From the IMG/VR virus record IMGVR_UViG_3300019886_000067, positions 1-64,000 of that record: DNA of 64,000 nt, one strand, 5' to 3'. The notes under the pieces were generated by a model. That model made no database searches. It had not been told where the DNA came from and saw only the letters and a program-made list of their open reading frames with translations. How positions within the stretch are numbered: position 1 is the first letter of the stretch; every line of letters starts with the position of its first letter. The stretch comes from a virus. Positions 6,798 to 63,284 of the stretch are shown piece by piece. The position numbers were made by a program, and so were the translations under genes.

Positions 6798-6802
6798 ATC
6801 AA

Positions 6803-7132
6803 ATGAGTTGGTTTCGTAAAACAAAAGAGGAGGGCACTTATCCTTCTCGTCAAACAACATTGCGCAAAGAGGCGCGCAGTCGGCGGCGCAAGCGTTTCAT
6901 TGAAAATTCGTTTACGAAGCTGCTTATTGGACTAGCAGCAATAGGCATCATAGGCGTTATTGTGCTGCTTAGTGCAGTCGTAACTTATTTTGGATGGAAC
7001 CACGGCGTTGTTAACGTCATCAAGGCTTGCGGCGGTGATGCCGGCGGCATTAGTTTGACAACGGCTGTGTTCACAAACATGGCTCTAGCTGCCCTGCGTG
7101 GTGGTAACGGAGCTAAGTTTAAAACGCAATGA
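6803..7132 (+). CDS. Membrane protein
   Basis: Basic N-terminus plus two TM segments. Confidence 0.7.
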   Translation: MSWFRKTKEEGTYPSRQTTLRKEARSRRRKRFIENSFTKLLIGLAAIGIIGVIVLLSAVVTYFGWNHGVVNVIKACGGDAGGISLTTAVFTNMALAALRGGNGAKFKTQ

Positions 7133-12693: not shown

Positions 12694-13198
12694 TCTTGGA
12701 TTCGTAGATATCGAGACGACAGGGCTTGACCCGGACAAGCATCAGGTTCTTGAGGTTGCAATACTGACAGAGCCGTTTGGGGATCAGGTCCACATTAGCC
12801 TCCCTATCAACCCTGGGAATGCCTCTGAGCAGGCACTAGAGACCAACGGCTACTACGCGCGGCGGAATGAGTTGCTTGAGATACAGCACACGCGAGAAGA
12901 GGCAGCCGAAATAGTACGTGACGCCCTTCAAGGTCACGTATTCATTGCAAACAATCCGTCATTCGATGCGGCTTTCTTGTCACGGCTACTGAGGGACTTC
13001 GGATACGGGCCTTCCTGGCACTACCACTTGGTAGACATCAAGTCTCTGGTGGCAGGTTACTTCGGCGTAGCCCCACCGTGGAACACAGCAAAGATAGCCG
13101 AGCTAGCCAACGTACCGCTGCCGGCCGACGCGCACACAGCGCTGGCGGACGCACAGTGGAACTTGGCGGTATACAAGTCTCTTGGGTTGGAGGGCTAA
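12686..13198 (+). CDS. DEDDh 3'-5' exonuclease (DnaQ/oligoribonuclease/RNase T superfamily)
   Basis: DIETTGL, NPSFD, HTALADA. Confidence 0.9.
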   Translation: MANLGFVDIETTGLDPDKHQVLEVAILTEPFGDQVHISLPINPGNASEQALETNGYYARRNELLEIQHTREEAAEIVRDALQGHVFIANNPSFDAAFLSRLLRDFGYGPSWHYHLVDIKSLVAGYFGVAPPWNTAKIAELANVPLPADAHTALADAQWNLAVYKSLGLEG

Positions 13199-20903: not shown

Positions 20904-21338
20904 ATGATTGATCCGTGTATGTACCTCTTCGTAAACCGTGGCCTGTGGATGTCTCCTGGGAAGATTGCGGCGCAGGCTGCTCATGCAGCCGTCGAGGCGT
21001 ACCGCATTTCTGACCAGGAAAGCAACATCTTCCGGCTGTGGTATCGAGGCGGTCACTACAAGAAGATTGTCCTGCTCGGGAGAGACGAGAACCATATGCG
21101 CAACATCGAGGCATATCTTACCGCTCGGGACATTCCTTTGGTAACTATCATTGATGAGGGACATACAGAGATTGCGCCGCTAAGTATCACTGCTATCGGC
21201 TGCGCTGTGCTCGACAAGGCACACGCAAACAACGCGGCGATCTTCTCTACGTTTGAGCTTTACAAGGATGAGCCGCCGCCTAAGAAAGACAATCGCTCTC
21301 CTTGGCAGAAGTTCAAAGACTTTCTAAGCGAAAGCTGA
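20904..21338 (+). CDS. pth2: Peptidyl-tRNA hydrolase type 2
   Basis: MSPGKIAAQAAHA, KKIVL, IIDEGHTEI motifs. Confidence 0.93.
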   Translation: MIDPCMYLFVNRGLWMSPGKIAAQAAHAAVEAYRISDQESNIFRLWYRGGHYKKIVLLGRDENHMRNIEAYLTARDIPLVTIIDEGHTEIAPLSITAIGCAVLDKAHANNAAIFSTFELYKDEPPPKKDNRSPWQKFKDFLSES

Positions 21339-52142: not shown

Positions 52143-52163
52143 AAGCGGGGTGATTCCTACAAG

Positions 52164-52239
52164 TACGGCGAACGAGAATCGAACTCGCATTATCCACGCT
52201 GAGAACGTGGGGTCCTAGTCCTAGTTAGACGACCGCCGC
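52164..52239 (-). tRNA. tRNA-Glu(CTC)
   Basis: Cloverleaf; anticodon arm CCACG-TTCTCAG-CGTGG. Confidence 0.92.
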
Positions 52240-52242
52240 GTA

Positions 52243-52314
52243 TAGCAGACCGAGGATTCGCGCCTCGCTCCCAGGCTTATGAGGCCCGGATGGTCACTAG
52301 ACCACCTGTCTGCA
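52243..52314 (-). tRNA. Atypical tRNA-Met(CAT), initiator-like 1:72 mismatch
   Basis: CGGGC-CTCATAA-GCCTG; T-loop CGCGAAT. Confidence 0.7.
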
Positions 52315-52315
52315 A

Positions 52316-52387
52316 AGTCCCTGTCGGGATTCGAACCCGAACCATTCGCTTAGGAGGCAAACGCGCTATCCATTACGCCACAAGGAC
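52316..52387 (-). tRNA. tRNA-Arg(CCT)
   Basis: Cloverleaf; loop CTCCTAA. Confidence 0.9.
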
Positions 52388-52390
52388 ATA

Positions 52391-52459
52391 TCTCCCTACT
52401 GAGAATCGAACTCAGCCTAACAGATTAGAAGTCCGCCGTCCCGATCCACGGGCAAGGAG
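52391..52459 (-). tRNA. tRNA-Arg(TCT), compact D arm
   Basis: GCGGA-CTTCTAA-TCTGT; 69 nt. Confidence 0.8.
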
Positions 52460-52463
52460 TAAG

Positions 52464-52532
52464 TCCCAAGAGCAGGATTCGAACCTGCACCGCGCGGCTT
52501 ATGAGTCCGCCGTGTCACCTAGACATCCTGGG
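52464..52532 (-). tRNA. tRNA-Met/Ile2(CAT), compact D arm
   Basis: Loop CTCATAA; canonical T arm; 69 nt. Confidence 0.8.
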
Positions 52533-52537
52533 TAGAG

Positions 52538-52606
52538 CGGGGAAGCAACGAATCGAACGCTGGCCTGCGGGTTTGGAATCCGCTTGGTCTCCATGACCTC
52601 TTCCCC
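52538..52606 (-). tRNA. tRNA-Trp(CCA)
   Basis: GCGGA-TTCCAAA-CCCGC; 69 nt. Confidence 0.85.
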
Positions 52607-52653
52607 TGGTTTCGTGTGCCCACCCACTATCGGGGGTAACACGACACACGAAA

Positions 52654-52729
52654 GGGTGTCTGACGGGATTCGAACCCGCATCGAACCGGATCACAACCGG
52701 CGGACTTAACCACTTAGACCACAGACACC
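52654..52729 (-). tRNA. tRNA-His(GTG)
   Basis: Loop TTGTGAT; G-1:C73. Confidence 0.92.
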
Positions 52730-52734
52730 GTGTA

Positions 52735-52803
52735 TCCCCTTACTGAGAGTCGAACTCAGCACTCAGGCTTCGGAGGCCCGAGACACGATCCGCGTGTAAG
52801 GAG
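52735..52803 (-). tRNA. tRNA-Arg(CCG), compact D arm
   Basis: CGGGC-CTCCGAA-GCCTG; 69 nt. Confidence 0.8.
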
Positions 52804-52864
52804 TTGTCACTAGTGGGCTCGCGGGAAGCCCTTTATGAGGGACCTATCTCCCTCGCTAGTGTAG

Positions 52865-52939
52865 CGCTGATGATGGGACTCGAACCCACGACATTCCGCT
52901 CGACAGGCGGACGCTCTGACCAAACTGAGCTACATCAGC
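52865..52939 (-). tRNA. tRNA-Asp(GTC)
   Basis: Canonical cloverleaf. Confidence 0.95.
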
Positions 52940-52945
52940 GTAAAG

Positions 52946-53019
52946 CCTCCCCGACAGGATTCGAACCTGTAACCTCTGGTTTCGTAGACCAGCGCGCTAT
53001 CCAATTACGCTACGGAGAG
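52946..53019 (-). tRNA. tRNA-Arg(ACG)
   Basis: Canonical cloverleaf. Confidence 0.95.
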
Positions 53020-53022
53020 TTA

Positions 53023-53106
53023 TGCGAGTGGTGGGAGTCGAACCCACATGGCCCTTCGGCCGGCGCGGTTTGAACGCACTGCGTATCCCAATTCCACCAC
53101 ACTCGC
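53023..53106 (-). tRNA. tRNA-Leu(CAA)
   Basis: Long variable arm; GTGCG-TTCAAAC-CGCGC. Confidence 0.9.
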
Positions 53107-53109
53107 GTA

Positions 53110-53192
53110 TACGTTCGGAGGGAGTCGAACCCTCAATCCCGATGGGCACTGGCTTCTAAGACCAGCGTGTATACCAATTCCACCACGAACGC
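53110..53192 (-). tRNA. tRNA-Leu(TAG)
   Basis: Long variable arm; loop CTTAGAA. Confidence 0.92.
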
Positions 53193-53195
53193 TCA

Positions 53196-53278
53196 TGCGA
53201 TTGACAAGAGTCGAACTTGCACATTCCGAAGAACACTGCCTCCTCAAGGCAGGGCGTCTACCATTCCGCCACAATCGC
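53196..53278 (-). tRNA. tRNA-Leu(GAG)
   Basis: Long variable arm; loop TTGAGGA. Confidence 0.92.
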
Positions 53279-53284
53279 TTAAAG

Positions 53285-53358
53285 TCAGGATGGCTGGATT
53301 TGAACCAGCGGCTTCCTCCGTCCGAGGGAGGCACGCTACCAGGCTGCGTCACATCCTG
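53285..53358 (-). tRNA. tRNA-Pro(CGG)
   Basis: Cloverleaf; C1. Confidence 0.92.
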
Positions 53359-53363
53359 TTGAG

Positions 53364-53438
53364 TCGGGATAGAAGGATTTGAACCTTCGGCTTCACCGCC
53401 CCAAACGGCGCGCTCTGACCAGACTGAGCTATATCCCG
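53364..53438 (-). tRNA. tRNA-Pro(TGG)
   Basis: Canonical cloverleaf. Confidence 0.95.
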
Positions 53439-53444
53439 AAAAAG

Positions 53445-53517
53445 CTCTTGCGCTAGGATTCGAACCTAGACCTAACGGGTTAACAGCCCGTCGTGCTGCC
53501 GTTGACACCACGCAAGA
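53445..53517 (-). tRNA. tRNA-Asn(GTT)
   Basis: ACGGG-CTGTTAA-CCCGT. Confidence 0.93.
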
Positions 53518-53523
53518 TCGAAG

Positions 53524-53595
53524 CTGGGGAGGTAGGATTCGAACCTACATCGGGCCGGGTCAGAGCCGTCCATCTTGCCATTAGACCACTCCCCA
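53524..53595 (-). tRNA. tRNA-Gln(CTG)
   Basis: Cloverleaf; U1-A72. Confidence 0.92.
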
Positions 53596-53600
53596 GGGTA

Positions 53601-53672
53601 ATGCGGAGGCTGGATTCGAACCAGCATCGAATGGGTTCAAGGCCCACCATCATGCCGTTAGACCACTCCGCA
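53601..53672 (-). tRNA. tRNA-Gln(TTG) with C33
   Basis: GTGGG-CCTTGAA-CCCAT. Confidence 0.88.
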
Positions 53673-53846
53673 GCAGAAAGAACAACATAGCACATCTTCG
53701 TGCCAAAGGTCGGGTCGTCCGGTCCCAATTCGGGATGGAACCGGACGACCGTCGCAAGAGTGCGCTCTCTGGGCTAGCTCTCCAACCCTACGCGCACCAG
53801 GAACGCAACTAATGGGCTGTACGTGCTCTAGGCGTCTCTGCCGAAG

Positions 53847-53898
53847 ACTGTAGCAGATTCTTTGCGGTGTTGCACGTCAAGCGAATCTGTGGTACGGT
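53847..53898. promoter_or_regulatory. Divergent promoters: TGC-TACAGT (-, tRNA array 1) and TTGCAC-N17-TACGGT-N6-ATG (+, cca, leaderless)
   Basis: Hexamers and spacings read directly. Confidence 0.7.
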
Positions 53899-53904
53899 TC
53901 CCCC

Positions 53905-55347
53905 ATGAAGACAACTCCCGATCAGTTCATGGCGAGCCTTGGCTTGCCAGAGGTATATCGCGTTGGAGGTTCAGTCCGAGACGAAGTTCTCGGCCGGCGC
54001 TCCAAAGACTCCGACTATATGGTTCGGGGCTCCACGCTTAATGAGATTAGGTCGGCTGTCGGGCGCGCGGGTGCTAAGCCGAGCAAGCTCAAGCTACGCA
54101 CAGGTGTTGAGGTAGGTGTACGGGCCGCAGTCAAGGGGCTCGGCTTGCTTGAGATTGTTCTGCCGCGCACAGAGCGCTCAACTGGACCCGGCCGGCACGA
54201 TTTCGAGATTCATTGTTCGCCTGATATCCGACTTGAGGAAGATGCTCTTCGTCGTGACTTCAAAATGAATGCGATCTACCTCAACATCGCTTCTCAGCAC
54301 TATGTTGATCCGCTTGGTGGGCTTGATGATATAAAACGTAAACTCATCAACACCACACATGCTGATTCCTTCAAGGAAGACCCGCTTCGCACGCTTCGAG
54401 CGCTGCGTTTCTGTTCTACGTTGCCAGGATTTTGTCTGTCAGGAACTACACACAACCAAATGTGCGACCATGCGCCGGCCGTAACTGGTCTGACGACGAA
54501 AGGTGTCTCTGCTACCGCATTTGATGAGCTTTGCAAGCTGCTCATGGGCAGTCGGCCAAGCTTGGCGCTGGAATTGATGGCCGAAACAGGCGTTATGGCG
54601 GTTTTCCTGCCTGAGCTTGTGCCAATGCTTGACTTCGAGCAGCGTTCGCGCTACCACGAGAAGACAACAAGCAAGCACACGTTCGATGCTGTGCAGGCGG
54701 CGGCTAATATGCACCAACACGCGCCGCTTCGCGTACGTTTGGCACTACTTTTCCACGATTCCGGCAAGCCTTTGATGGCTTGGACAGGCGAGGACGGCCT
54801 TCAGCATTACTACGCGCTTGATCCAAAGCGAGCAGTAGAGCTAAATGCACCAATCGCCGCACTTGAATCACACGAGGCATGGGGCGTCAAGCAAGCGCAC
54901 GCTGCTCTAACGCGCCTTGGCGCTCCAAAGAAGCTACGCCAAGACGTTGAAACACTGATTGCGCGCCATATGTTGCCGCTGCATGAGAACTTTAGGCCGA
55001 TCAAGGTACGCAAGTTGCGTGCAGAGCTTGGCGACGAGCTTTTGCGTGACCTAATCACGCATCGGCTGGCTGATGTGCTCGGCAAGGGCGGTGACACAAC
55101 GGCCGCTGTAGAAGTTCTGACGTGGATTGCCAACGAGCAAGACAGGGCCATCGCCGGCCATGTGCCGCTAAGTCCGAAGGAACTTGATATAAGTGGCCGT
55201 GAACTTGTTGCGCTAGGTTTGAACGGCCGCGAAATCGGACGCGTGCAGAAGCAGCTACTACACGAGGTACTTGCTCAGCCTAAGCTCAACACAAACGAGT
55301 GGCTTGTCAATCGAGCCAAGGTCATACGCCACAAGGATATGAAATGA
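53905..55347 (+). CDS. cca: CCA-adding tRNA nucleotidyltransferase with HD domain
   Basis: VGGSVRD..DSD, EDALRRDF.MNA, EDPLRTLRALRF, LFHDSGK. Confidence 0.93.
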   Translation: MKTTPDQFMASLGLPEVYRVGGSVRDEVLGRRSKDSDYMVRGSTLNEIRSAVGRAGAKPSKLKLRTGVEVGVRAAVKGLGLLEIVLPRTERSTGPGRHDFEIHCSPDIRLEEDALRRDFKMNAIYLNIASQHYVDPLGGLDDIKRKLINTTHADSFKEDPLRTLRALRFCSTLPGFCLSGTTHNQMCDHAPAVTGLTTKGVSATAFDELCKLLMGSRPSLALELMAETGVMAVFLPELVPMLDFEQRSRYHEKTTSKHTFDAVQAAANMHQHAPLRVRLALLFHDSGKPLMAWTGEDGLQHYYALDPKRAVELNAPIAALESHEAWGVKQAHAALTRLGAPKKLRQDVETLIARHMLPLHENFRPIKVRKLRAELGDELLRDLITHRLADVLGKGGDTTAAVEVLTWIANEQDRAIAGHVPLSPKELDISGRELVALGLNGREIGRVQKQLLHEVLAQPKLNTNEWLVNRAKVIRHKDMK

Positions 55348-55547
55348 GCGCTCCGATTTATCCTCCGTGGACGAAGAAGTACAAGCTAAGCTACCTTGGC
55401 TTCAATAACTACGAGGTAATAGAGGAGTCATCAAAAGACATACTCGCGGTCGGTCCTTTGGAGTATGGCGAGGCACAAGACATTGCTGATCGCGCCAATT
55501 CCGAACTCACAGCCGAACGTGTCAAGAACAGAAACAAGGCCAAATGA
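55344..55547 (+). CDS. Hypothetical protein
   Basis: ATGA overlap with cca. Confidence 0.65.
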   Translation: MSAPIYPPWTKKYKLSYLGFNNYEVIEESSKDILAVGPLEYGEAQDIADRANSELTAERVKNRNKAK

Positions 55548-55719
55548 TAAATCTGGCCTTTGTCTGCGCCGGCCTGCTGGGTGTTTTGATGTTCATGTGT
55601 CTCGCGCACGAACGCGAGCTTGAGCGTGAAGAGTGCCCACATCTTAATTGCCGCGAATTTGGAAGCTCCTACAATATCACTATCTGTTTTTGCCCAGATT
55701 GCGGAAAGGTAGACCTACT

Positions 55720-56163
55720 ATGATCCTGCGTAACCAAGCCATATGTACGCTGTGTGGCGACCACATCAAGTCGATACACAAACATGATTTCAAATCTTGT
55801 TTATGTGGAGCGCTATCAGTTGACGGCGGCACTGAGTATCTGCGCCGGCTCGGCAACCCAGGAGAGTACAGAGACACGTCTATTTGTATTCCCGAGCAGC
55901 TTCCGATCAAGGAGGCCGCAAAGTATCTCGGCGTCGTAGTGGCGCTGGGAGATACGGCCGTTGCAGGAACTTCGTGGCTAGAAGGCCAGTTGATAGGTCA
56001 GTTCAAGACTAAGCCTTGGTTCAAGCCGCCGAAGGACAAACGACAACTACTCAAGTGGTGTCGGAAGCTCGTGGAATGGGAGTTGGTTGATGAGCTTACG
56101 ACTAAGGGCGACGCTCAGTGCTATTGGAAATCCAAAGTCGAGCTAGCTACTTGGACTGATTAA
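55720..56163 (+). CDS. Zn-finger phage protein
   Basis: NQAICTLCGDHIKS..HDFKSCLCG..SVDGG motif. Confidence 0.8.
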   Translation: MILRNQAICTLCGDHIKSIHKHDFKSCLCGALSVDGGTEYLRRLGNPGEYRDTSICIPEQLPIKEAAKYLGVVVALGDTAVAGTSWLEGQLIGQFKTKPWFKPPKDKRQLLKWCRKLVEWELVDELTTKGDAQCYWKSKVELATWTD

Positions 56164-56164
56164 T

Positions 56165-56231
56165 TATGCACGATCACGCAGATTAGATGATGTTCTCTTC
56201 GCCTAGAAGTAAATCTGCGTGATCGTGCATA
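56165..56231. repeat. 20-bp perfect inverted repeat between convergent genes
   Basis: TATGCACGATCACGCAGATT-N27-AATCTGCGTGATCGTGCATA. Confidence 0.9.
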
Positions 56232-56235
56232 CGAC

Positions 56236-56556
56236 TTAGTTAGTCTTGGTGACTACTCCGCCTGCCTGGGATTCCTGGGCAGCCAGCGGCAAAGGAGTGG
56301 CCTGCGCTGCTGCTGGTGCAGCCGGCGGAAAAGTAAGTTTCGCAAGCTCATTCTCAGACGTGTCGATACGGCTCTTGACCGTATCTAGGTAGCTCTCAAG
56401 CTGAGCGCTCTGAGAAGCAAGCGCGGAAAGCTGAGAAGTCGCACGAACGAACTCTGCCTTATGTGACTCAAGAAGTTGCTCGGCTGCTGCAATCTTGTGA
56501 GCTACAGTGCCCGGCACAAGCTTCTCGACAAAGTTCAATGCGTCAGAGATATTCAT
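56236..56556 (-). CDS. Coiled-coil hypothetical protein
   Basis: GAAGGA RBS; downstream of tRNA array 2. Confidence 0.7.
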   Translation of the reverse strand: MNISDALNFVEKLVPGTVAHKIAAAEQLLESHKAEFVRATSQLSALASQSAQLESYLDTVKSRIDTSENELAKLTFPPAAPAAAQATPLPLAAQESQAGGVVTKTN

Positions 56557-56610
56557 TGGTACAGTGCATCCTTCCCGTGGTTTTGTAGTAGGAGAAGGAT
56601 ACCATTAGAG

Positions 56611-56696
56611 CGGAAGGAGTGGGACTCGAACCCACACGCCGGCTCACGCCGACCTCAGCACTTTCCAGGCGCAGTACCGCTCCTTTGGGTCCTTCC
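56611..56696 (-). tRNA. tRNA-Ser(GGA), weak D arm
   Basis: Loop CTGGAAA; long variable arm. Confidence 0.85.
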
Positions 56697-56704
56697 GAAA
56701 GAGA

Positions 56705-56775
56705 AGAGCACGGTTGGATTCGAACCAACGTGAGACGGGTTGCAACCGCCGGCTTCGCCCCTCAGCCACGCACTC
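56705..56775 (-). tRNA. tRNA-Cys(GCA)
   Basis: Loop TTGCAAC; U73. Confidence 0.92.
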
Positions 56776-56850
56776 ATAAGCGGGATGCACTTTGGCGCGC
56801 TCCCGAGTGCGCCTCGCTCTAGACGGCCGCAACCGACGAGCGATACTAAG

Positions 56851-56939
56851 CGGTAGGTCAGGGATTCGAACCCTGGGAACACCATTAGATGTTCGCTGGT
56901 TTAGCAAACCAGTCCATTCGGCCGCTCTGGCAACCTACC
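56851..56939 (-). tRNA. tRNA-Ser(GCT)
   Basis: CTGGT-TTGCTAA-ACCAG; long variable arm. Confidence 0.94.
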
Positions 56940-56945
56940 GGAAAG

Positions 56946-57028
56946 CGGAGGGTAAGCGAATCGAACACTCACGCGGTTAGTCGTGCCCTGGGTTTCGAAT
57001 CCAGTTTGCCGCCTTGGCGGTACCCTCC
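56946..57028 (-). tRNA. tRNA-Ser(CGA), atypical D arm
   Basis: Loop TTCGAAA; long variable arm. Confidence 0.82.
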
Positions 57029-57032
57029 GAAA

Positions 57033-57112
57033 TGGAAACGTGAGGAATCGAACCTCATAGTACGAGACAGCGGGGTTACAGCCCACTTGGCGGTCCCAGC
57101 GCCAACGTTTCC
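57033..57112 (-). tRNA. tRNA-Tyr(GTA)
   Basis: GTGGG-CTGTAAC-CCCGC. Confidence 0.9.
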
Positions 57113-57174
57113 GAACGAAGAAGGACTATAGCATACGCTCGACACATTCGCGCCAGATGTGGTACAGTTCTTCC

Positions 57175-57384
57175 ATGAGCAACGTACAGGCCCTAGTAGG
57201 CAAGCCACTCACATTCTACGCCCGAGGCAAGAAGCGCAACATAGGCACGATCACGGATGTATCTGTCGTAGACAACGGCGTCCGATTCGCCGCAACCGTG
57301 ACTGACAGCGAGGTAGCCAAGCTTCTAGGCGTTGATCCTCCTGTTGAGATAAGCGGTGGTGCTGGCGATGTCTCAAGCACCTAA
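57175..57384 (+). CDS. Hypothetical protein
   Basis: TGG-TACAGT-N6-ATG. Confidence 0.7.
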   Translation: MSNVQALVGKPLTFYARGKKRNIGTITDVSVVDNGVRFAATVTDSEVAKLLGVDPPVEISGGAGDVSST

Positions 57385-57979
57385 ACTTGATCCTGCAAGT
57401 ACGTGGCTTGTATCTGACACGCACTTTGGGCACGAAAACATCGTCGGCTTCGCCCGCCGCCCGCACGACCATGAGCAAGTCATTATGGAGGAATGGGCAC
57501 AAACTGTTCCCGACGACGGAACGGTACTGCATCTAGGCGACTTGTCTTATAGAAATAACTCGTTCTTCAAGAACATGATCGCCAAGCACTTGACTGGCGC
57601 TCAGAAGCTCTTGATCCAAGGCAACCATGATCGTCAGCGGCCGAACTTCTATCGTGATAGCGGCTTCAAGATCGTTAAGCCTTTTGAGATTCGCTATGTC
57701 ACGCCGAAGGCTGGTGTCTGGACAGTCTCGTTCTCTCACTATCCCCTAAAGAAGTCAGCACATCCGCTTGCATCAGCAGGCGGCCTAAGACGCGTTCATA
57801 TACACGGCCACATTCACAATAACGGGTATGGCGGCAAGAATTCTCCGTTTGTTCCGTTCAGCGCAGGGCAAATCAACATCAGCGTTGAGCAGATGCACTA
57901 TCGCCCCTGCAAACTAGACGACCTTCTCAACGGCTACATAGAAGGTTGCTACGAGCCTCCGAAGGTCGAGGACAAGTGA
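57368..57979 (+). CDS. Calcineurin-like metallophosphoesterase
   Basis: SDTHFGH, HLGD, GNHD, SHYP, HGHIH. Confidence 0.93.
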   Translation: MSQAPKLDPASTWLVSDTHFGHENIVGFARRPHDHEQVIMEEWAQTVPDDGTVLHLGDLSYRNNSFFKNMIAKHLTGAQKLLIQGNHDRQRPNFYRDSGFKIVKPFEIRYVTPKAGVWTVSFSHYPLKKSAHPLASAGGLRRVHIHGHIHNNGYGGKNSPFVPFSAGQINISVEQMHYRPCKLDDLLNGYIEGCYEPPKVEDK

Positions 57980-58326
57980 ACCTGCCGCCGCTCTATCATT
58001 GGTCGCCCAGCGAGCGCCGCGTCGAAATACTGCAAGATGGGCTCAAGGTGTTCTCTGAGCCAGTCGTTCATGGAGCCGGCCGCGCTCCGTATCTGTGCTT
58101 TGGAACGTGCCCGCGCCAAGCATGGAGTCTATCTGGCGATTTGGATTGGGTGTCAGAAAAAGAGGAATGGGACCTCTGGCAAATCATCCTCTCAAAAGAC
58201 GATGATGTGCATATCAGGATGGAGAGTGGCACATATATTTACGAGGTACGAACGTTCAACTCAATTCCGGCTGATCGTGTGTGGCTTGTTGCGCAACGTG
58301 AGCCGGCGGTCTTCATCGAGCGGTAG
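57976..58326 (+). CDS. Putative ADP-ribosyltransferase/Tpt1(KptA)-like fold protein
   Basis: LYHWS...ILQDGLK..YLCF..IPADRV resembles ART-fold H-S/T motif proteins. Confidence 0.5.
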   Translation: MNLPPLYHWSPSERRVEILQDGLKVFSEPVVHGAGRAPYLCFGTCPRQAWSLSGDLDWVSEKEEWDLWQIILSKDDDVHIRMESGTYIYEVRTFNSIPADRVWLVAQREPAVFIER

Positions 58327-58404
58327 AATGGACAGAATACTTGCGTTTGCGCTACCTTTTTGCCCATACTGCAACTACATCCCGAGCTTCAAGTAACCGC
58401 TGCT

Positions 58405-58734
58405 ATGCCCCGCGAAAAAGTTCTGACTGTTCGTATTTCTGATTGTGAGATTCAGACGTTCAAAGCCACCGGCAAAGGTGGGCAGAACCGAGACAAACGC
58501 GATACGGCCGTTCGTATAATCCACCATCAGTCCGGGGCGCGTGGTGAATCACGTGAAGAGCGTGACCAGCTTTCCAACAAGCGCAAAGCCTTTGTCCGCA
58601 TGGCGAACTCAAAGGCATTCAAGGACTGGCTTACAAGAGAGCATAGCCGTCGTATAGCCGACGTAGATGCCTGGCTTGATGAGCAGATGAAGCCAGAGAA
58701 CCTTGATGTTGAGTATGGCTCGGATACCAACTAG
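58405..58734 (+). CDS. Stand-alone RF-1 (GGQ) domain peptidyl-tRNA hydrolase, ArfB/PrfH-like
   Basis: TFKATGKGGQNRDKRDTAVRIIH..SREERDQLSNKRKAF. Confidence 0.9.
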   Translation: MPREKVLTVRISDCEIQTFKATGKGGQNRDKRDTAVRIIHHQSGARGESREERDQLSNKRKAFVRMANSKAFKDWLTREHSRRIADVDAWLDEQMKPENLDVEYGSDTN

Positions 58735-58975
58735 CTCAAACAACATGCGTGTGTTTAGCGAAGCGCACAAACACAATAACCACTGGCTAGTTGAAGCTGA
58801 ATGGCACGGCAAAATGCGGATTGTCCACAGTGGCCTTGACATCTACGCTGTACTTCGCTGGGCGACCCAGCATGGCTACCACGAGAAAAGCCCTGCCTAA
58901 AAGAGCAATTCTGCAACATAGTTGCAACAAAGCTAAATTAGACAGGACCGCAATGGACACCCGTCTTTCCAACGA

Positions 58976-59048
58976 TGCAACCTGTAGGAATCGAACCTAC
59001 GACGCCCGGCTTTTCAGGCCGGCGCTCTACCGTCTGAGCTAAGGTTGC
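58976..59048 (-). tRNA. tRNA-Phe(GAA)
   Basis: Canonical cloverleaf. Confidence 0.95.
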
Positions 59049-59053
59049 TTGTA

Positions 59054-59125
59054 AGCGCGTGACGAGATTCGAACTCGTTCTTCTTGGTTGGAAGCCAAGT
59101 GTGCCGCCATGAACACTTCACACGC
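59054..59125 (-). tRNA. tRNA-Gly(TCC)
   Basis: CTTGG-CTTCCAA-CCAAG. Confidence 0.92.
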
Positions 59126-59200
59126 GAAAGGCCGGGCTCTCACCGGACTACAAGCGACCACGCTTGCCTTATGGGTCGGTACTTCCCGACAGTAACTTAA

Positions 59201-59272
59201 AGCTCTCACCGAGAATCGAACTCGATACTGACGATTACGAAACGTCCGTGTCACCAACAACACCTTGAGAGC
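59201..59272 (-). tRNA. tRNA-Thr(CGT)
   Basis: Loop TTCGTAA. Confidence 0.9.
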
Positions 59273-59275
59273 ACA

Positions 59276-59342
59276 AGCCCCATATCGGAATCGAACCGAT
59301 TCTAGCTGATTACAAAACAGCCGCCAGACCATCAGATAGGGC
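59276..59342 (-). tRNA. tRNA-Thr(TGT), reduced D arm
   Basis: Loop TTTGTAA; 67 nt. Confidence 0.8.
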
Positions 59343-59431
59343 GTATCCACAGGCTGCCTACTTCTCCTGCTAAGAGGGTCGGCATTTAAAAGGATGTCCA
59401 AAGCAATAAGGACAAGCATTCACCTGTTAGA

Positions 59432-59503
59432 AGCTGATGACGAGAGTCGAACTCGTAACCCCTCCCATACCAAGGGAGTGCTATACCGTTAAGCCACACC
59501 AGC
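59432..59503 (-). tRNA. tRNA-Thr(GGT)
   Basis: CTCCC-TTGGTAT-GGGAG. Confidence 0.93.
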
Positions 59504-59584
59504 GGGCGTGGCGCTCTAACCAGATTTGAGCTACACCCGAGCAAAGCTCGCGCGGTGGGCTTCGATCCCACAACCTCCACTAAG
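59504..59584 (-). ncRNA. Circularly permuted, anticodon-less tRNA-like RNA
   Basis: Order is T arm, acceptor stem closed by a TTT loop, then D arm; ends GTGG/CCAC pair. Confidence 0.8.
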
Positions 59585-59657
59585 TACCCCCGCAAGGAAT
59601 CGAACCTTGTTCGCTGGCTTAAGAGGCCAGTGCTCATCCTGTTAAAGCTTCGGAGGC
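59585..59657 (-). tRNA. tRNA-Lys(CTT)
   Basis: CTGGC-CTCTTAA-GCCAG. Confidence 0.92.
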
Positions 59658-59663
59658 TTGTAG

Positions 59664-59755
59664 TGCGCCTGATGGGACTCGAACCCACATCCGTTGGTGT
59701 GAAAAACCAATGCTGGGGACAACTCAGTTGCCTCTACCATTTCAGCTACAGACGC
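59664..59755 (-). tRNA. tRNA-Glu(TTC) with hairpin insertion in the D loop
   Basis: TTGGT-TTTTCAC-ACCAA; 92 nt. Confidence 0.8.
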
Positions 59756-59761
59756 TTAAAG

Positions 59762-59835
59762 TGCCCCCTCTGGGATTCGAACCCAGTTCTCACCGCTTAA
59801 AAGGCGGGGTTCTAACACACATGAACTAAGGAGGC
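59762..59835 (-). tRNA. tRNA-Lys(TTT)
   Basis: Loop CTTTTAA. Confidence 0.92.
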
Positions 59836-59840
59836 GTGCA

Positions 59841-59913
59841 AGCAACAGACGGGATTCGAACCCGCAACCTTCGACATGGCAAGCCGACGCACTACCGAAC
59901 GTGCTCCTGTTGC
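59841..59913 (-). tRNA. tRNA-Gly(GCC)
   Basis: TCGGC-TTGCCAT-GTCGA. Confidence 0.92.
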
Positions 59914-59918
59914 GTAAG

Positions 59919-59992
59919 TACGCCCCCAAGGATTTGAACCTTGAACCAACACCTTATAAGGATGCTGCTCTAACCAATTGAGCTAGAGGCGC
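59919..59992 (-). tRNA. tRNA-Ile(TAT)
   Basis: GCATC-CTTATAA-GGTGT; canonical D and T arms. Confidence 0.9.
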
Positions 59993-59997
59993 GAGAG

Positions 59998-60072
59998 TGG
60001 ATCGAGAAGGATTTGAACCTTCGACAGTTCGCGTATCAGACGAATGCTCTAACCTGACTGAGCTACCGATCC
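59998..60072 (-). tRNA. tRNA-Ile(GAT)
   Basis: Loop CTGATAC. Confidence 0.93.
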
Positions 60073-60077
60073 ATGAG

Positions 60078-60151
60078 TGGACAATCTCGGACTCGAACCG
60101 AGGACTTCCGCCTTGTAAAAGCGGCGCTCTAACCAACTGAGCTAATCGTCC
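60078..60151 (-). tRNA. tRNA-Val(TAC)
   Basis: Loop TTTACAA. Confidence 0.94.
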
Positions 60152-60155
60152 ATAA

Positions 60156-60224
60156 ACGGGAAGGCTGGACTCGGACCAGCATCTACCGGCCCCACGCCGG
60201 CCGCTCTAATTGAGCTACCTCCCT
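60156..60224 (-). tRNA. Degenerate tRNA-like gene (Pro TGG-like loop CGTGGGG)
   Basis: All stems pair, but no U33, no D-loop GG, T loop TCCGAGT and a 1:72 mismatch. Confidence 0.6.
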
Positions 60225-60226
60225 AG

Positions 60227-60299
60227 TGGTCAATGCTGGACTCGAACCAGCGACTTCGGCGATGTCACCGCCGCGCTCTCCCAACTGAGCTAATCGACC
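60227..60299 (-). tRNA. tRNA-Val(GAC)
   Basis: CGGCG-GTGACAT-CGCCG. Confidence 0.92.
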
Positions 60300-60305
60300 A
60301 AGAAG

Positions 60306-60378
60306 TGGAGAAGATGGGATTCGAACCCACGACATCCTGCTTGCAAAACAGGCGCTCTACCAACTGAGCTACATCCCC
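60306..60378 (-). tRNA. tRNA-Ala(TGC)
   Basis: G3:U70; canonical. Confidence 0.95.
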
Positions 60379-60505
60379 TTGGAGCGCCAGGCATTACCCG
60401 TGGCGCGTGGTACGGTCAGAGTAGAGGCTGGGACTGGACCGATAGGGCCAGGAGCGTTCTCAAACCGTGAGTAGAACTCTAGCACATCTACGCGACACAT
60501 GCTGA

Positions 60506-60721
60506 CTAGCGCACGCGAGTGATCCTGTTCTTGAATGGTTCGTATGAATTGAGTATCTTGGACTCTTCAGGATCGGATGTTTCGTAGGCATGGCCGGGGC
60601 TCATTTTAGCCGCCATGACTTTGCCGTTTGGCTCTGCGGCCATCAACAGCGTTTCGCCGCCGGCCAACGGCAGATAGGCCGGCGGTTCATGTTTGAGGTT
60701 GGCGAACAACAGCGCTAGCAT
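60506..60721 (-). CDS. Small protein with a YETSDP motif
   Basis: TAATG-coupled. Confidence 0.65.
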   Translation of the reverse strand: MLALLFANLKHEPPAYLPLAGGETLLMAAEPNGKVMAAKMSPGHAYETSDPEESKILNSYEPFKNRITRVR

Positions 60722-61581
60722 TAGTCGCCTAGTCTAATGGCCTGCAAGCTAAAGAACGCCTGTGCTCCCGCTCCGTTGACGTATTCTACGCGAACCCAGC
60801 GGGTACTTGGGCGATGAATTATCTCGCCGTAGAATTCACATCCAGTAGCTTTCGCAAGTTCGACTGTCTTTACCTTCTTGAAGGTTATGTTGTCACGGCT
60901 GACTTCTAGAAAGATAGTTCCGATAACATCGGCTGTTGCGCTGACACGGAACTCGTATTGCCCGAGGCTTCCGTTTGAGAAGCCCGTCGCTGTGGCAGTT
61001 GTGGTCAAATCAATAGAGGCTGACTGAACTTTGGCGGCAGAGCCGAGTGTAGTAGAGGAAAGATCGGTCCACTGACCCGGAGCAAATGTGCCACCGACGA
61101 TAGTTCCAGAAGCAGCGAACACCACTCCGACAACTGTCTCATAATTGGACGCACCCTGCGCCACCGATACTTCTACTGTGCCAGATGTGTAAGCCGTGCA
61201 GTGAACGCGAATGTGCGTGGAACCTGCCGGAATCGCTGCCTCCCATGCCACAGTGCTGTTCGTGGCTGCGGAAAGCGGAGTCGTGGTCGGAGAACCAGAA
61301 GCTACGTTAGCGCCTTGAAATCCCATCCATGTTGTGCCGCCGTCATGGCTTGCTTCGCAAATAGCCGTAACACCAGCGTATACACCTTTGAAGTAGAAGA
61401 CACACATAGTTTGTCCTGCTTCTACAGGCGCTATGACTTCTGCGCCGGCACCTGCTGTGCCGGTCAGCGTGCCGTTTACTACGCTATCAGCCTGCTTAGA
61501 TGTCTGCTGTATAAGCTGATTCGAGGCGTTTTCGTTGAAGAGAACGAGTTGCCCCGAGGGCAGTAGGACTGTTGCAGACAT
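60721..61581 (-). CDS. Beta-rich putative virion decoration protein
   Basis: EASHDGGTTW, HIRV, LEVSRD..RWVRVEYVNG jelly-roll-like motifs. Confidence 0.7.
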   Translation of the reverse strand: MSATVLLPSGQLVLFNENASNQLIQQTSKQADSVVNGTLTGTAGAGAEVIAPVEAGQTMCVFYFKGVYAGVTAICEASHDGGTTWMGFQGANVASGSPTTTPLSAATNSTVAWEAAIPAGSTHIRVHCTAYTSGTVEVSVAQGASNYETVVGVVFAASGTIVGGTFAPGQWTDLSSTTLGSAAKVQSASIDLTTTATATGFSNGSLGQYEFRVSATADVIGTIFLEVSRDNITFKKVKTVELAKATGCEFYGEIIHRPSTRWVRVEYVNGAGAQAFFSLQAIRLGD

Positions 61582-61600
61582 TGTAACCTACTATACCTGG

Positions 61601-62617
61601 CTATTCGACTTTCACAACAACCCCAGGAAAGTCGTTTTCCAGTACCTTGATTGTCTGTGGGTCTTCCGTTTCATACGGGGTTCCAGAGTTTAGAACTGCT
61701 GTCACTAGTTGACCGTTTGCAGCCTTGACTTTCTCAATCGTCAGTTTCGTGCCGCTTTTGGTCGGTTCAAACAGCGCTGCGGCTACGGTGTAGGAGAATG
61801 TAGCCGTTGTGGTGCCGCCAGAGTTGTTTTCGGCCGTGACTTTGATGCTGTAGCTTCCAGTCGTTGTAAGCGAGCCCGTGATAAGGCCAGTAATGTTGTT
61901 GATGGTGAGACCAGGAGGCAAGCCACTCGCGCTGTAAAATACAGCGCGAGTGGCAATAATCTGGATTGAAACTTTGCTCCCGGTGGCTTTTTTCTGCGTC
62001 CCTGGGTTCGTAACTTCTGGTGCAGCTTCTTCAGCTTGTTCAGCGGCCATGAAGTTCGTAAATAGCGGGTAGGAGCCTTGGCCGTCAGAGCCAACGAATC
62101 CGGCAGTGAATGGCGTGTTCGGGTCTTTCGCGTTCAAAACGAGAACCCACGAGCCGGAACCTTCAGGCCGGCGGTAAGCTTCTAGTTTGTTGCCCTGCTT
62201 CCAAAGTGCGAATTCATCACCAGCGGCCGGACTTATAGAGCCAGAAAGGCCAATGCTTGATTCAACGCCGCTTTCAACACGGAATATACCAATTAGGAGA
62301 GTAGATGACGTGTTGTGGTAAAACTGGACTCGATAGCCTGAGTGCGTCGTGTTGTTGTAGCAAAGCCACAAGCATCCGAATCGTTCGGCAATATCCGAGC
62401 CGAGTGACCGCTTGATCGTCACAGCATGGTTGTTTTTGAATTCTTTAGCGTTCCAGTAAGACCCAGAAGACAACCCAAAACCCGAGTATGACATTCCGCC
62501 GGCCGCACTTTTCAGAGCACCCGTAGCCCATGTCATCTTACTCCAATTTGCTTTTTCATACCAAGTAGTTTCGGCATGTTGAAGGTTGTCTTGGAGCGTA
62601 AGTTCTTCTAGGAACAC
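61601..62617 (-). CDS. Lectin-like plus putative Ig (He_PIG) domain virion protein
   Basis: VTNPGTQ..YSASGLPPGLTINNITGLITG. Confidence 0.8.
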   Translation of the reverse strand: MFLEELTLQDNLQHAETTWYEKANWSKMTWATGALKSAAGGMSYSGFGLSSGSYWNAKEFKNNHAVTIKRSLGSDIAERFGCLWLCYNNTTHSGYRVQFYHNTSSTLLIGIFRVESGVESSIGLSGSISPAAGDEFALWKQGNKLEAYRRPEGSGSWVLVLNAKDPNTPFTAGFVGSDGQGSYPLFTNFMAAEQAEEAAPEVTNPGTQKKATGSKVSIQIIATRAVFYSASGLPPGLTINNITGLITGSLTTTGSYSIKVTAENNSGGTTTATFSYTVAAALFEPTKSGTKLTIEKVKAANGQLVTAVLNSGTPYETEDPQTIKVLENDFPGVVVKVE

Positions 62618-62655
62618 TCACCAATTCTGCCACAGCAACCGGCTTTCAGCCGTGC

Positions 62656-62704
62656 GACAATATCGTCACATACGCCCGATTCGAACGAATGTGACGATAT
62701 TGTC
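62656..62704. terminator. 16-bp perfect inverted repeat directly 3' of the RNase P RNA
   Basis: GACAATATCGTCACAT-N17-ATGTGACGATATTGTC. Confidence 0.7.
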
Positions 62705-62710
62705 ACAAAT

Positions 62711-63064
62711 GGGGTCCAGCCTGTAGCCGGGGTTCTGTTCCCAGGACGACAAACCCCTGGGCGACCACGATCTTTCTTACCGGGCTGACTAATTCCCGGC
62801 AGCCGTCCTATGACGTGCCGCTCCAAACCTTGATCGCCCCCGCTATGCTTCGGGCGTCTGTTCTTGGATCGCACCCAGCCTTGGCAACTCGCGCGTGCGC
62901 GCGTCTCGCGGTTCAAGCGTCCCGTGCTACTGTCCGCATCGCTCTCGCAACTTGGCCCCAACAAGGACTCCCGCCGGCCGGTGACGACGAGGTTAGCCCT
63001 CGTCGGGGTGCCCCGAACTTCCTCTCGCGTCCTTCAACCGCGAGCCGCAGTCCGGCTGGCCCAC
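62711..63064 (-). ncRNA. rnpB: RNase P RNA (type A-like)
   Basis: CR-I GAGGAAGTTCGGGGCAC, CR-V AACAGAACCCCGGCTAC; P1, P2, P3, P4, P5/P7, P8, P18 and P19 pair. Confidence 0.92.
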
Positions 63065-63068
63065 TAAA

Positions 63069-63180
63069 ACGAAGAGAGGGATTCGAGCCCTCTACTGCCA
63101 ACATCGCAGCCACCATACCTTGCTCCGCTCCGAAGGTTTCTGTACTTGGAGTCGTTAGACGATAATCCGTGTTGAAACCT
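63069..63180 (-). ncRNA. Unassigned structured RNA: hairpin plus D-stem-less tRNA mimic
   Basis: AGGTTTC/GAAACCT stem; GCGGAG/CTTCGT acceptor-like stem; AGAGGG-CTCGAAT-CCCTCT T arm. Confidence 0.55.
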
Positions 63181-63187
63181 ACAAACA

Positions 63188-63267
63188 TGGAGAAGGAGGG
63201 ATTCGAACCCTCGTCTTACCGCTGCGCCATTAGCGCGTTACACGGCAATCGACACCAAGCCTTCCCC
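63188..63267 (-). ncRNA. ssrA: Minimal tmRNA (tRNA-like domain only)
   Basis: GGGGAAG/CTTCTCC-A with G3:U; stemless D loop ending TCGA; P2 TTGCCG/CGGTAA; GAC; GAGGG-TTCGAAT-CCCTC. Confidence 0.85.
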
Positions 63268-63275
63268 GTCTTCAA

Positions 63276-63284
63276 ACCATATCA
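63276..63284 (-). promoter_or_regulatory. Extended -10 (TG-A-TATGGT) 8 nt upstream of the mini-tmRNA
   Basis: Same TGn-TAnnnT form as the boxes in front of the three tRNA arrays. Confidence 0.6.

Follow-up and report, generated by a model that had tools for sequence, protein, structure and literature searches.

The stretch of DNA analysed here, called the window, is 64,000 nucleotides (nt) long and forms part of an 80,397-base linear IMG/VR virus record (G000:C1:1-64000; CheckV completeness 66%). Between positions 52,164 and 63,284 it carries an island of tRNA arrays, other non-coding RNAs (ncRNAs) and genes connected with tRNAs and ribosomes, in which the element of chief interest is an RNase P RNA. 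The phage encodes a portal, a large terminase, a family A DNA polymerase and a ribonucleotide reductase, as identified with PHROG and Pfam, and the public runs holding the window sequence are soil metagenomes from two studies. When the island was compared with deposited phages by megablast, the sole match was a tRNA-Pro, and tblastn with the CCA-adding enzyme and the portal reached at best about 25-30% identity, so that no cultured relative with close similarity was found; the CCA enzyme used alone as a query likewise retrieved no relative in viral contigs. The window is the DNA of a large uncultured soil phage. A preliminary description of the same DNA had presented the island as a self-contained system of tRNA maturation, repair and ribosome rescue. 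The ncRNA features that lie outside the tRNA arrays are the following.

62712-63062, minus strand: compact class-A-type RNase P RNA of 351 nt (Rfam, homology to the contig L005, covariation)
63185-63267, minus strand: transfer-messenger RNA (tmRNA) reduced to its tRNA-like domain (TLD) (RF00023, 44.6 bits, E ~5e-15, model positions 1-374)
63064-63184, minus strand: spacer RNA with a hairpin and a degenerate tRNA-like element (fold, T-arm matches)
62652-62708, minus strand: near-perfect 25-base-pair (bp) hairpin directly 3' of the RNase P RNA, followed by a small GC hairpin (fold)

At gathering thresholds Rfam yields only tRNAs in the island. Under permissive settings the RNase P model RF00010, which has a gathering score of 100 bits, aligns end to end with positions 62708-63063 of the minus strand at 19.1 bits (E 0.0008-0.017), pairing P1, P2 and P3 and placing three conserved regions (CR), namely the CR-I-like GAGGAAGUUCGGGG, a CR-IV-like stretch and the CR-V-like AACAGAACCCCGGCUA. 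The RNA has the helices P1 (GGGCCAGCC/GGCUGGACCC), P2 (GACUGCG/CGUGGUC) and P3 (CUCGCG/CGCGAG), a CR-IV-like AGAAAGAU, P5, P15 with GGU in its loop, a P18-like hairpin and a P19 hairpin. In P4 the CR-I strand AGU[U]CGGGG pairs with CCCCGGCU of CR-V and leaves a single bulged U. The joints GAGGAA, AGAU-AAU and ACAGAA of the single-stranded catalytic core are retained together with the L15 GGU, which in the family alignment is conserved 5' of the 3' strand of P15. In known RNase P this GGU pairs with the CCA at the 3' end of the tRNA. The phage P4 reads GUUCGGGG/CCCCGGCU where the bacterial consensus has AGUCCGGG/CCCGGCUU; read off ungapped Rfam alignments against the known E. coli P4 pairing, the difference would amount to three paired substitutions that keep both the helix and the bulge. 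The region of the specificity domain is conserved among the window, L005 and L006, though not mappable onto canonical helices. In the second soil study the ncRNA region containing the RNase P RNA and the TLD is identical, and one low-depth variant piece differs in the 3' strand of P1, in the apex of P19 and in the hairpin, with the same CR-V strand; this piece does not include the partner strand needed to judge compensation.

Since the RF00010 score of the window RNA is weak on its own, relatives were sought. Two other viral contigs share the exact 18-mer that covers CR-I, 22 contain the CR-V 16-mer, and 13 of these 22 have the CR-I motif 172-414 nt upstream on the same strand; the 13 contigs with both strands of the P4 core represent about 10 distinct sequences. 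L004, from a complete 168-kilobase (kb) phage genome with direct terminal repeats, reaches 191 bits on RF00010 and passes the threshold, and the core of this RNA is the same as that of the window. The remaining relatives score 27-67 bits; L005 (54 bits) is homologous to the window RNA over its whole length. Members of the lineage range from about 250 to 480 nt (L009 has 252 nt), and most are found within a tRNA array or next to one, on the strand of the tRNAs, with two members near full tmRNA genes. All but one lie far below the Rfam cut-off, so that standard annotation misses phage RNase P genes. A covariance model (R1) seeded with the minimal member L009/L023 was alone in detecting three more members with a slightly different CR-I (L018 865-1133, L011 862-1136 and L021 7109-7358, all on the minus strand), in which CR-I is for example AGGACAAGUUCGGGG, or has GGGA for GGGG.

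The conservation of structure within this lineage was assessed in several ways. RNAalifold recovers P4 with its bulged U de novo. The MAFFT alignments A1-A4 failed to align the covarying P1-P3, and RNAalifold applied to them recovered P4 and neither P1 nor P2; folding each member separately with P4 held open gave P1, P2, P3, a P15/16 arm, a P18-like hairpin, often with a GNRA loop, and in some members P19. With the window included, the mean duplex energy of a strand with its own partner as against that of another member was -11.8 vs -1.6 kcal/mol for P1, -11.7 vs -3.3 kcal/mol for P2 and -5.4 vs -0.8 kcal/mol for P3. In a model-based alignment of six relatives, L005 among them, 94.7% of the cells are paired, compared with 66.1% after shuffling (0 of 500) and 30-44% with the partners slid, values that are inflated because the alignment was fitted to the model. 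Both sides have changed in 49 of its 80 pairs (13 of 14 in P1, 7 of 9 in P2 and 7 of 10 in P3), with P4 invariant; P1, P2, P3 and P18 covary strongly. Compensatory changes that include the window are seen in P5 and in P15, for the latter across the window, L005, L006 and L020. Only these two helices could be scored in column-wise checks on A4, where internal hairpins failed through alignment offsets. Judged by these comparisons, the window RNA is genuinely homologous to bacterial class A RNase P RNA and its structure is conserved, and the assignment made in the preliminary description is sustained by the Rfam match and the comparative analysis together.

The lineage is also unfamiliar, as had been supposed: no match was obtained when the phage RNase P RNAs were searched for with blastn in 50,697 deposited phage genomes, and no description of a phage-encoded RNase P RNA was found in the literature. 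A scan of one genome per species for 185,579 prokaryote species, covering one spacing class (255-285 nt), found the P4 variant in two short contigs of metagenome-assembled genomes (MAGs) only, and from its distribution the variant looks virus-associated. The two MAG contigs, L032 (1249-1533) and L033 (493-775), both have a phage-type RNase P core on the minus strand. One, binned as Pseudomonadota, is a fragment of a tRNA array, and the other is binned as a Nitrososphaerales archaeon; four tRNAs flank the RNA in L032, the open reading frames (ORFs) of L033 have 0 PHROG matches, and both contigs are probably mis-binned viral fragments. As a separate observation, contig L012 of G004, a complete 167-kb phage, holds an RNase P-like RNA and a nearby tmRNA (3218-3531 and 6578-6966, minus strand). 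The former has both core motifs, an unclear P1 and a near-absent P3, and was missed by the first look with Rfam; the latter is called permuted by ARAGORN, with the tag ANDDTFEVRLAA.

The second unusual RNA of the island scores just below the RF00023 gathering score of 47. Its alignment places a 19-nt hairpin where the model has a 310-nt mRNA-like and pseudoknot core, and matches the acceptor stem, the UGG-UCGA D-loop analogue, a 9-bp P2a helix, the GAC-G junction and the T arm. The fold has a 7-bp acceptor stem with G3:U70 and a discriminator A, and CCA is not encoded; ARAGORN calls neither a tmRNA nor a tag peptide at this position. The element is a TLD-only derivative in which the mRNA-like domain, with its resume codon, tag frame and pseudoknots, is gone, exactly as previously described, and its D-loop analogue and P2a are tmRNA features, unlike tRNA-Ala. 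There are published parallels for such molecules. Mycobacteriophage DS6A is listed as 'TLD only' in the tmRNA literature (PMC4131195, PMC11915505), and these sources report, citing an experiment, that a molecule similar to the TLD strongly inhibits tmRNA, perhaps by titrating SmpB (PMC4131195; PMC11915505). Coding-sequence-less (CDS-less) tmRNAs occur alongside SmpB in jakobid mitochondria (PMC11915505), the genomes of which retain rnpB together with a reduced ssrA (PMC3590771), and RNase P makes the 5' end of tmRNA, which is charged with alanine (PMC3985003). Because a DS6A-type molecule inhibits trans-translation and the contig has no SmpB gene, the TLD-only tmRNA is, by analogy, probably a decoy for SmpB and not a rescuer. 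The role in ribosome rescue originally suggested for it thus runs counter to the DS6A precedent, which points to inhibition of trans-translation (PMC4131195, PMC11915505).

Between the TLD and the RNase P RNA, the spacer RNA has an anticodon-arm-like hairpin and a T arm, AGAGGG-CUCGAAU-CCCUCU, at about 63075-63093. As one of several tRNA mimics claimed for the island, it retains the clear T arm; its fold is no better than that of shuffled sequences (z -0.7) and it is not conserved in G002, the 89.8-kb record behind L005. The spacer RNA is possibly a processing signal. The hairpin noted earlier at 62656 is confirmed at 62652-62708, where it and the small hairpin fold with -42.7 kcal/mol (z -7.8); it has no U tract, was not called as a terminator and has no blastn counterpart in G002, and a function as a 3'-end or processing signal is possible. 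On the other side, the upstream ORF stops at 63282-63284 and the TLD begins about 15 nt beyond the stop codon. A promoter and terminator scan gave nothing above shuffled expectation either at the -10 box suggested at 63276 or at the hairpin. With the scan empty and the ORF ending where it does, the proposed ncRNA operon with a -10 box of its own finds no support; it is equally possible that the RNAs are released from a longer transcript by tRNA-type processing. The interval 60721-62617 between the RNase P RNA and the third tRNA array has two ORFs on the tRNA (minus) strand, one of 286 amino acids (aa) that belongs to no family and one of 338 aa with a He_PIG immunoglobulin (Ig)-like domain; its counterpart in G002 holds a different, longer set of ORFs.

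The RNase P RNA shares its strand with the tRNA genes, for which ARAGORN at its defaults gives 33 in three arrays, on the minus strand only, specifying 20 of 20 amino acids. At 90% thresholds five weak tRNA-like genes are added on the same strand, each exactly filling a tRNA-sized gap, for a total of 33-38.

52163-53672, minus strand: tRNA array 1, 17 confident genes, for Glu, Met (two), Arg (three), Trp, His, Asp, Leu (three), Pro (two), Asn and Gln (two) (ARAGORN, Rfam; gene order kept in G002)
52734-52802, minus strand: weak tRNA Arg-CCG in array 1 (ARAGORN, 90%)
56705-57112, minus strand: tRNA array 2, genes for Cys, Ser-GCU and Tyr (ARAGORN, Rfam; Tyr-Ser-Cys block kept in G002)
56610-56696 and 56945-57028, minus strand: weak tRNA-like genes of array 2 (ARAGORN, 90%)
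58976-60378, minus strand: tRNA array 3, 13 confident genes, for Phe, Gly (two), Thr (three), Lys (two), Ile (two), Val (two) and Ala (ARAGORN, Rfam; order kept in G002/L005)
59276-59342 and 60156-60225, minus strand: weak Thr-UGU and weak Pro-UGG in array 3 (ARAGORN, 90%)

The earlier count of 37 tRNAs for all 20 amino acids is therefore about right, and the statement that none has an encoded CCA is borne out, since a 3' CCA is encoded in 0 of the 33 genes; the CCA seen in tRNA-Tyr is only apparent, its letters belonging to the acceptor stem and the discriminator. Spacers between the tRNAs are mostly 0-5 nt, with 3-5 nt the usual length, and the ARAGORN and Rfam scans found no further tRNA or ncRNA in the remainder of the contig. 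Within 52242-52532 (minus strand) tRNA genes abut or overlap, with a 0-nt spacer between Met and Arg and a 1-nt overlap between Arg-UCU and Met, so that one cut would yield both a 5' end and the 3' end of the neighbour.

Several structured elements accompany the arrays. A 47-nt hairpin between tRNA-His and tRNA-Trp (52607-52653, minus strand; z -3.15) has an 11-bp closing stem and the 3' end ...ACCA; it is the only element of the island with an encoded CCA-like 3' end, and resembles an acceptor/T-arm minihelix. Between tRNA-Asp and the weak Arg-CCG gene lies a 61-nt Y-shaped RNA formed of a closing stem and two hairpins (52803-52863, minus strand; z -4.5), which 0 shuffles fold equally well. 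Structured gaps of tRNA size are present in array 3 as well. One of 80 nt (59504-59583, minus strand) has a T-arm-like hairpin ahead of a D-arm-like segment, arranged as in a permuted or half tRNA, and 59509-59579 gives a weak, Y-RNA-like (YrlA) Rfam match. The tRNA-Thr(UGU) at 59663-59755 (minus strand) is unusually long at 93 nt and may carry a long insert or an intron; its counterpart at 8633-8728 of L005 is a 96-nt tRNA match that ARAGORN skips.

The proteins that belong with these RNAs, in the island and elsewhere in the window, are as follows.

53905-55347, plus strand: class II CCA-adding tRNA nucleotidyltransferase, 480 aa (Pfam; phrog_2244, E 7e-59)
55648-56163, plus strand: Cys-rich DUF7695 protein, 171 aa (PF24749, 67.8 bits)
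57356-57979, plus strand: calcineurin-like metallophosphoesterase, 207 aa (PF12850, 30.1 bits; phrog_547, E 3e-36)
57976-58326, plus strand: protein with a single-lobe ADP-ribosyltransferase (ART) fold, 116 aa (AlphaFold2 (AF2) and Foldseek)
58360-58734, plus strand: RF-1-domain protein with GGQ, 124 aa (PF00472, 52.2 bits, cut-off 35; phrog_3122, E 8e-33)
20904-21338, plus strand, outside the island: Pth2-type peptidyl-tRNA hydrolase, 144 aa (PF01981, 78.5 bits, cut-off 23)
12623-13198, plus strand, outside the island: DEDDh/RNase T-family 3'-5' exonuclease, 191 aa (PF00929, 44.8 bits)

The CCA enzyme is transcribed divergently from array 1 and passes the cut-offs of PF01743 (67.3 bits) and PF12627 (35.8 bits), with all NCBIfam CCA models below theirs. 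Both the enzyme and its orientation are thus as first described; the HD domain named with them falls short of its threshold (17.1 bits, cut-off 22), and a C-terminal HD domain is probable on this alignment. The metallophosphoesterase, correctly recognised before, is a candidate RNA-end phosphatase or phosphodiesterase. For the ART-fold protein the listed ORF (126 aa) starts at 57946, and 116 aa is the likely true length. It has no Pfam or NCBIfam match, belongs to phrog_12283, of unknown function, and has seven homologues and an atlas lead to the Arr ART. In the AF2 model (pLDDT 80.8, pTM 0.75) the top Foldseek matches are Tpt1/KptA (E 2e-4, TM 0.57-0.61), with DarT and toxin-type folds of the ART superfamily matching more weakly. 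The label ART/Tpt1-like therefore holds at the level of the predicted fold only, and a sequence-family signature is missing in Pfam and NCBIfam. The GGQ motif is present in the translation of the RF-1-domain protein, which confirms the GGQ factor. This protein scores 23.2 bits on NF006718 (cut-off 100), the equivalog of ArfB, a factor whose basic C-terminal tail probes the empty mRNA channel, and higher on the prfA, prfB and prfH models; it is a predicted stand-alone peptidyl-tRNA hydrolase domain of ArfB/ICT1/PrfH type. Pth2, placed correctly at 20904, scores 68.7 bits on the NCBIfam Pth2 model, below its cut-off of 126. The DEDDh exonuclease was also rightly identified, and is a candidate trimmer of tRNA 3' trailers. 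The ORF at 18708 has no Pfam or NCBIfam family match, and the S4-like protein reported there is not supported.

G002 shows synteny with the window phage, the proteins being about 50-75% identical. Its 32 tRNAs follow the order seen in the window, its RNase P-like RNA has kept both relative position and strand, and it has orthologues of the CCA enzyme (66% identity), the phosphoesterase (58%), the GGQ protein (62%) and Pth2 (66%). By blastn and tblastn it contains no TLD, tRNA-like spacer, hairpin, ART-fold protein, DUF7695 protein or exonuclease. Lack of co-conservation, named earlier as grounds for refutation, thus does not apply to a core made up of the tRNA arrays, the RNase P RNA, the CCA enzyme, the phosphoesterase, the GGQ protein and Pth2. 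Not shared with G002, and therefore accessory, are the TLD, the ART-fold protein and the DEDDh exonuclease. Of the other phages with the RNase P RNA, G006 and G010 have the CCA enzyme.

The anatomy of the locus suggests a mechanism. Long multi-tRNA transcripts would be cut by RNase P at the 5' end of each tRNA, by a catalytic RNA that the phage supplies and that presumably assembles with host RnpA, since no phage rnpA was found. RNase P is known to separate polycistronic tRNAs (PMC7049720, PMC4176162). With spacers of 0-5 nt, the 5' cuts would also separate the tRNAs of the phage and leave very short 3' trailers, which exonucleases of the host or the phage DEDDh enzyme could trim before the CCA end is added by the phage CCA enzyme, whose HD domain may, like the adjacent phosphoesterase, clean blocked 3' ends. 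A phage copy of the ribozyme would prevent 5' processing from becoming limiting with about 35 extra tRNA genes or upon shut-off of host transcription. The TLD-only tmRNA, by analogy with the DS6A-type molecule, would bind host SmpB and block tagging by trans-translation, and the GGQ protein and Pth2 would give tag-free release and recycling of stalled peptidyl-tRNA. On balance we favour the view that the island serves translation support and takeover in this manner, with a phage RNase P, a CCA enzyme, a TLD decoy and tag-free release, and hold it to be probable, if well short of certain. It would not be self-contained, as had been claimed: no RnpA, SmpB, RNA ligase or polynucleotide kinase is present among the ORFs scanned, and with neither RnpA nor SmpB the RNAs must use host proteins. 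As for repair, the scanned ORFs leave only that of 3' ends as a possibility.

A number of observations weigh against this view. The RF00010 gathering score is missed by the window RNA by a wide margin (19.1 of 100 bits), and R1 did not detect this RNA, giving only generic hairpins with the filters off. In the window and in L005 the Rfam alignment does not cover the specificity domain, which comprises P7-P14 and the T-loop binding site, and the P4 changes fall at almost universally conserved positions and could reduce or alter activity; the pairing in the six-member alignment is, as said, inflated. RnpA genes are found neither in the window contig nor in three complete RNase P-carrying phage genomes, nor SmpB in the contig, which would make the island dependent on compatibility with the host proteins. 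The CCA enzyme is missing from the complete RNase P-carrying genomes G001 and G004, so that rnpB and cca are not an obligate pair. The T arm and 3' acceptor strand of the TLD, which is absent from the closest relative G002, are identical to those of an ordinary phage tRNA-Ala, and the idea that the TLD is a recently remodelled tRNA-Ala copy keeps a residual plausibility on its sequence. Finally, among the public runs holding the window sequence there are DNA runs only and no RNA run.

Some of these observations bear on whether the two RNAs work at all. If the ncRNA cluster were decaying cargo, a captured fragment of host rnpB beside a broken tmRNA or tRNA-Ala copy, both without function, then the two sub-threshold Rfam matches, the absence of the TLD and the tRNA mimic from G002 and the insignificant fold of that mimic would be expected. 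The strong covariation of the RNase P RNA, the invariance of its core in at least 10 lineages, its unchanged position in G002 and the identity of the ncRNA region in an independent soil study all speak against decay, as does the TLD, which retains every TLD element and has its core cleanly replaced by a hairpin. For the RNase P RNA these sequence comparisons largely refute such a reading, which for the cluster as a whole we regard as extremely improbable. It is also very unlikely that the RNase P-like RNA is maintained as something other than a working ribozyme, either a decoy for host RnpA or another partner that lowers host tRNA maturation or a re-used structured RNA. Such a role would suit a P4 that departs from the bacterial consensus at normally invariant positions, a specificity domain that is reduced or unalignable in most members, the failure to find a phage RnpA and a neighbouring TLD-only tmRNA that is itself best read as a decoy. 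Yet the P4 changes preserve each pair and the bulged U, the catalytic-core joints and the L15 GGU are kept, the position on the tRNA strand of tRNA arrays suits a processing enzyme, and the relative L004, at 191 bits, is a canonical class A RNA.

The function of the island as a whole may be conceived differently too. In the preliminary description it was thought to counter host defences, and it could mainly allow the phage to survive cleavage of host tRNAs or damage to their acceptor ends, with tRNAs resupplied, 3' ends rebuilt (HD domain, phosphoesterase, ART/Tpt1-like protein) and an RNase P RNA of its own carried because processing by the host is likewise attacked or switched off. Reports exist of phage-borne tRNAs offsetting defences aimed at tRNAs, and the HD-domain CCA enzymes of bacteria act as 2',3'-cyclic phosphodiesterases and as phosphatases. 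In the island, a tRNA set for 20 amino acids with CCA-less genes frees the phage from host tRNA pools, the HD-type CCA enzyme and the phosphoesterase are adjacent and co-conserved, and a Tpt1-like ART-fold protein is placed among the end-processing genes. Without an RNA ligase or polynucleotide kinase among the scanned ORFs, however, cleaved anticodon loops could not be sealed; the ART-fold protein and the exonuclease are absent from G002, the HD domain is sub-threshold and the sequence indicates no particular defence system. Counter-defence, which overlaps translation support and takeover more than it excludes them, seems to us rather unlikely as the main function. The TLD RNA might instead be a working rescue adaptor that is charged with Ala, moves with host SmpB into stalled ribosomes and takes over the nascent chain, which the GGQ protein and Pth2 would release untagged. 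Its elements for identity to alanyl-tRNA synthetase (AlaRS), G3:U70 and A73, and its SmpB-contacting features are intact, the GGQ protein and Pth2 are encoded, and the retention of CDS-less tmRNAs with SmpB in jakobid mitochondria suggests some function (PMC11915505, PMC3590771). The sole experiment cited as a precedent found inhibition of tmRNA (PMC4131195), and the GGQ protein and Pth2 are kept in TLD-less G002 and hence do not depend on the TLD. We judge an adaptor of this sort to be quite unlikely; ArfB-type factors, moreover, rescue ribosomes without tmRNA.

Translation support and takeover can be extended to a more specific proposal, namely that large phages own a compact RNase P lineage, with a re-tuned P4 and a minimal specificity domain, for packed precursors of CCA-less tRNAs, and that in the window this lineage stands within a replaced translation quality control, in which the TLD decoy switches off tagging rescue by the host and the GGQ hydrolase and Pth2 take over untagged release. 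This proposal is tentative, and we consider it possible and somewhat doubtful. If the phage ribozyme does work with little or no specificity domain, it would be at once a minimal RNase P of natural origin and a new way for a virus to take over its host. There are two universal ribozymes; RNase P RNA, one of them, is regarded as a cellular or organellar housekeeping gene. A phage copy would extend the translation functions carried by viruses to the catalytic step of tRNA 5' maturation, and natural minimal RNase P RNAs would reveal which parts of the ribozyme are dispensable. Annotation thresholds hide phage RNase P genes, with one member only reaching the Rfam cut-off. The TLD-only tmRNA, the GGQ hydrolase and Pth2 together offer a testable model for the re-routing of ribosome rescue by a phage.

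In comparison with known systems, the RNase P RNA of the window has the P1-P5, P15 GGU, P18 and optional P19 order and the CR-I/IV/V-like joints of bacterial class A RNase P RNA (RF00010; E. coli M1 RNA, rnpB), and differs in lying beside tRNA arrays without rnpA, in its substituted P4 and in a specificity domain that is reduced or unalignable. The nearest published report concerns Mycobacterium austroafricanum and strain YC-RL4, which have additional, divergent copies of rnpB that the authors suspected to be horizontally acquired (PMC9569102). These copies likewise have altered specificity domains with conserved catalytic residues; they are, however, chromosomal and not shown to be viral, and are likened to the phage lineage by description. 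The TLD-only tmRNA has a published phage precedent in that of DS6A, with which it shares the acceptor stem, D-loop analogue, P2 helix and T arm, the lack of a tag frame and a phage genome as its source; the phage lineage and environment are different, the window TLD lies directly upstream of the RNase P RNA and the likeness is one of description. The CDS-less tmRNAs of jakobid mitochondria and some plastids are similarly reduced and without a tag frame (PMC4131195, PMC11915505, and Jacob et al. 2004 as cited there). Tpt1/KptA has an NAD-binding ART lobe that superimposes on the 116-aa protein (TM ~0.6, E 2e-4); the latter corresponds to about one of the two lobes of Tpt1 and does not match the PTS_2-RNA signature, so that the resemblance is one of fold only. 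Large-phage tRNA clusters of T4 type, phrog_2244, phrog_3122 and phage tmRNAs provide the same kinds of component as the island, and tRNA arrays, CCA enzymes, GGQ proteins and tmRNA-related genes are each common in large phages, where the preliminary description had called the first two and release factor (RF)-like genes individually known. In the classical picture the tRNA precursors of a phage are cut by host RNase P, whereas the window phage brings the catalytic RNA itself. Most of the other components being of kinds known in large phages, it is for the phage-encoded RNase P RNA that no earlier description was found in the literature.

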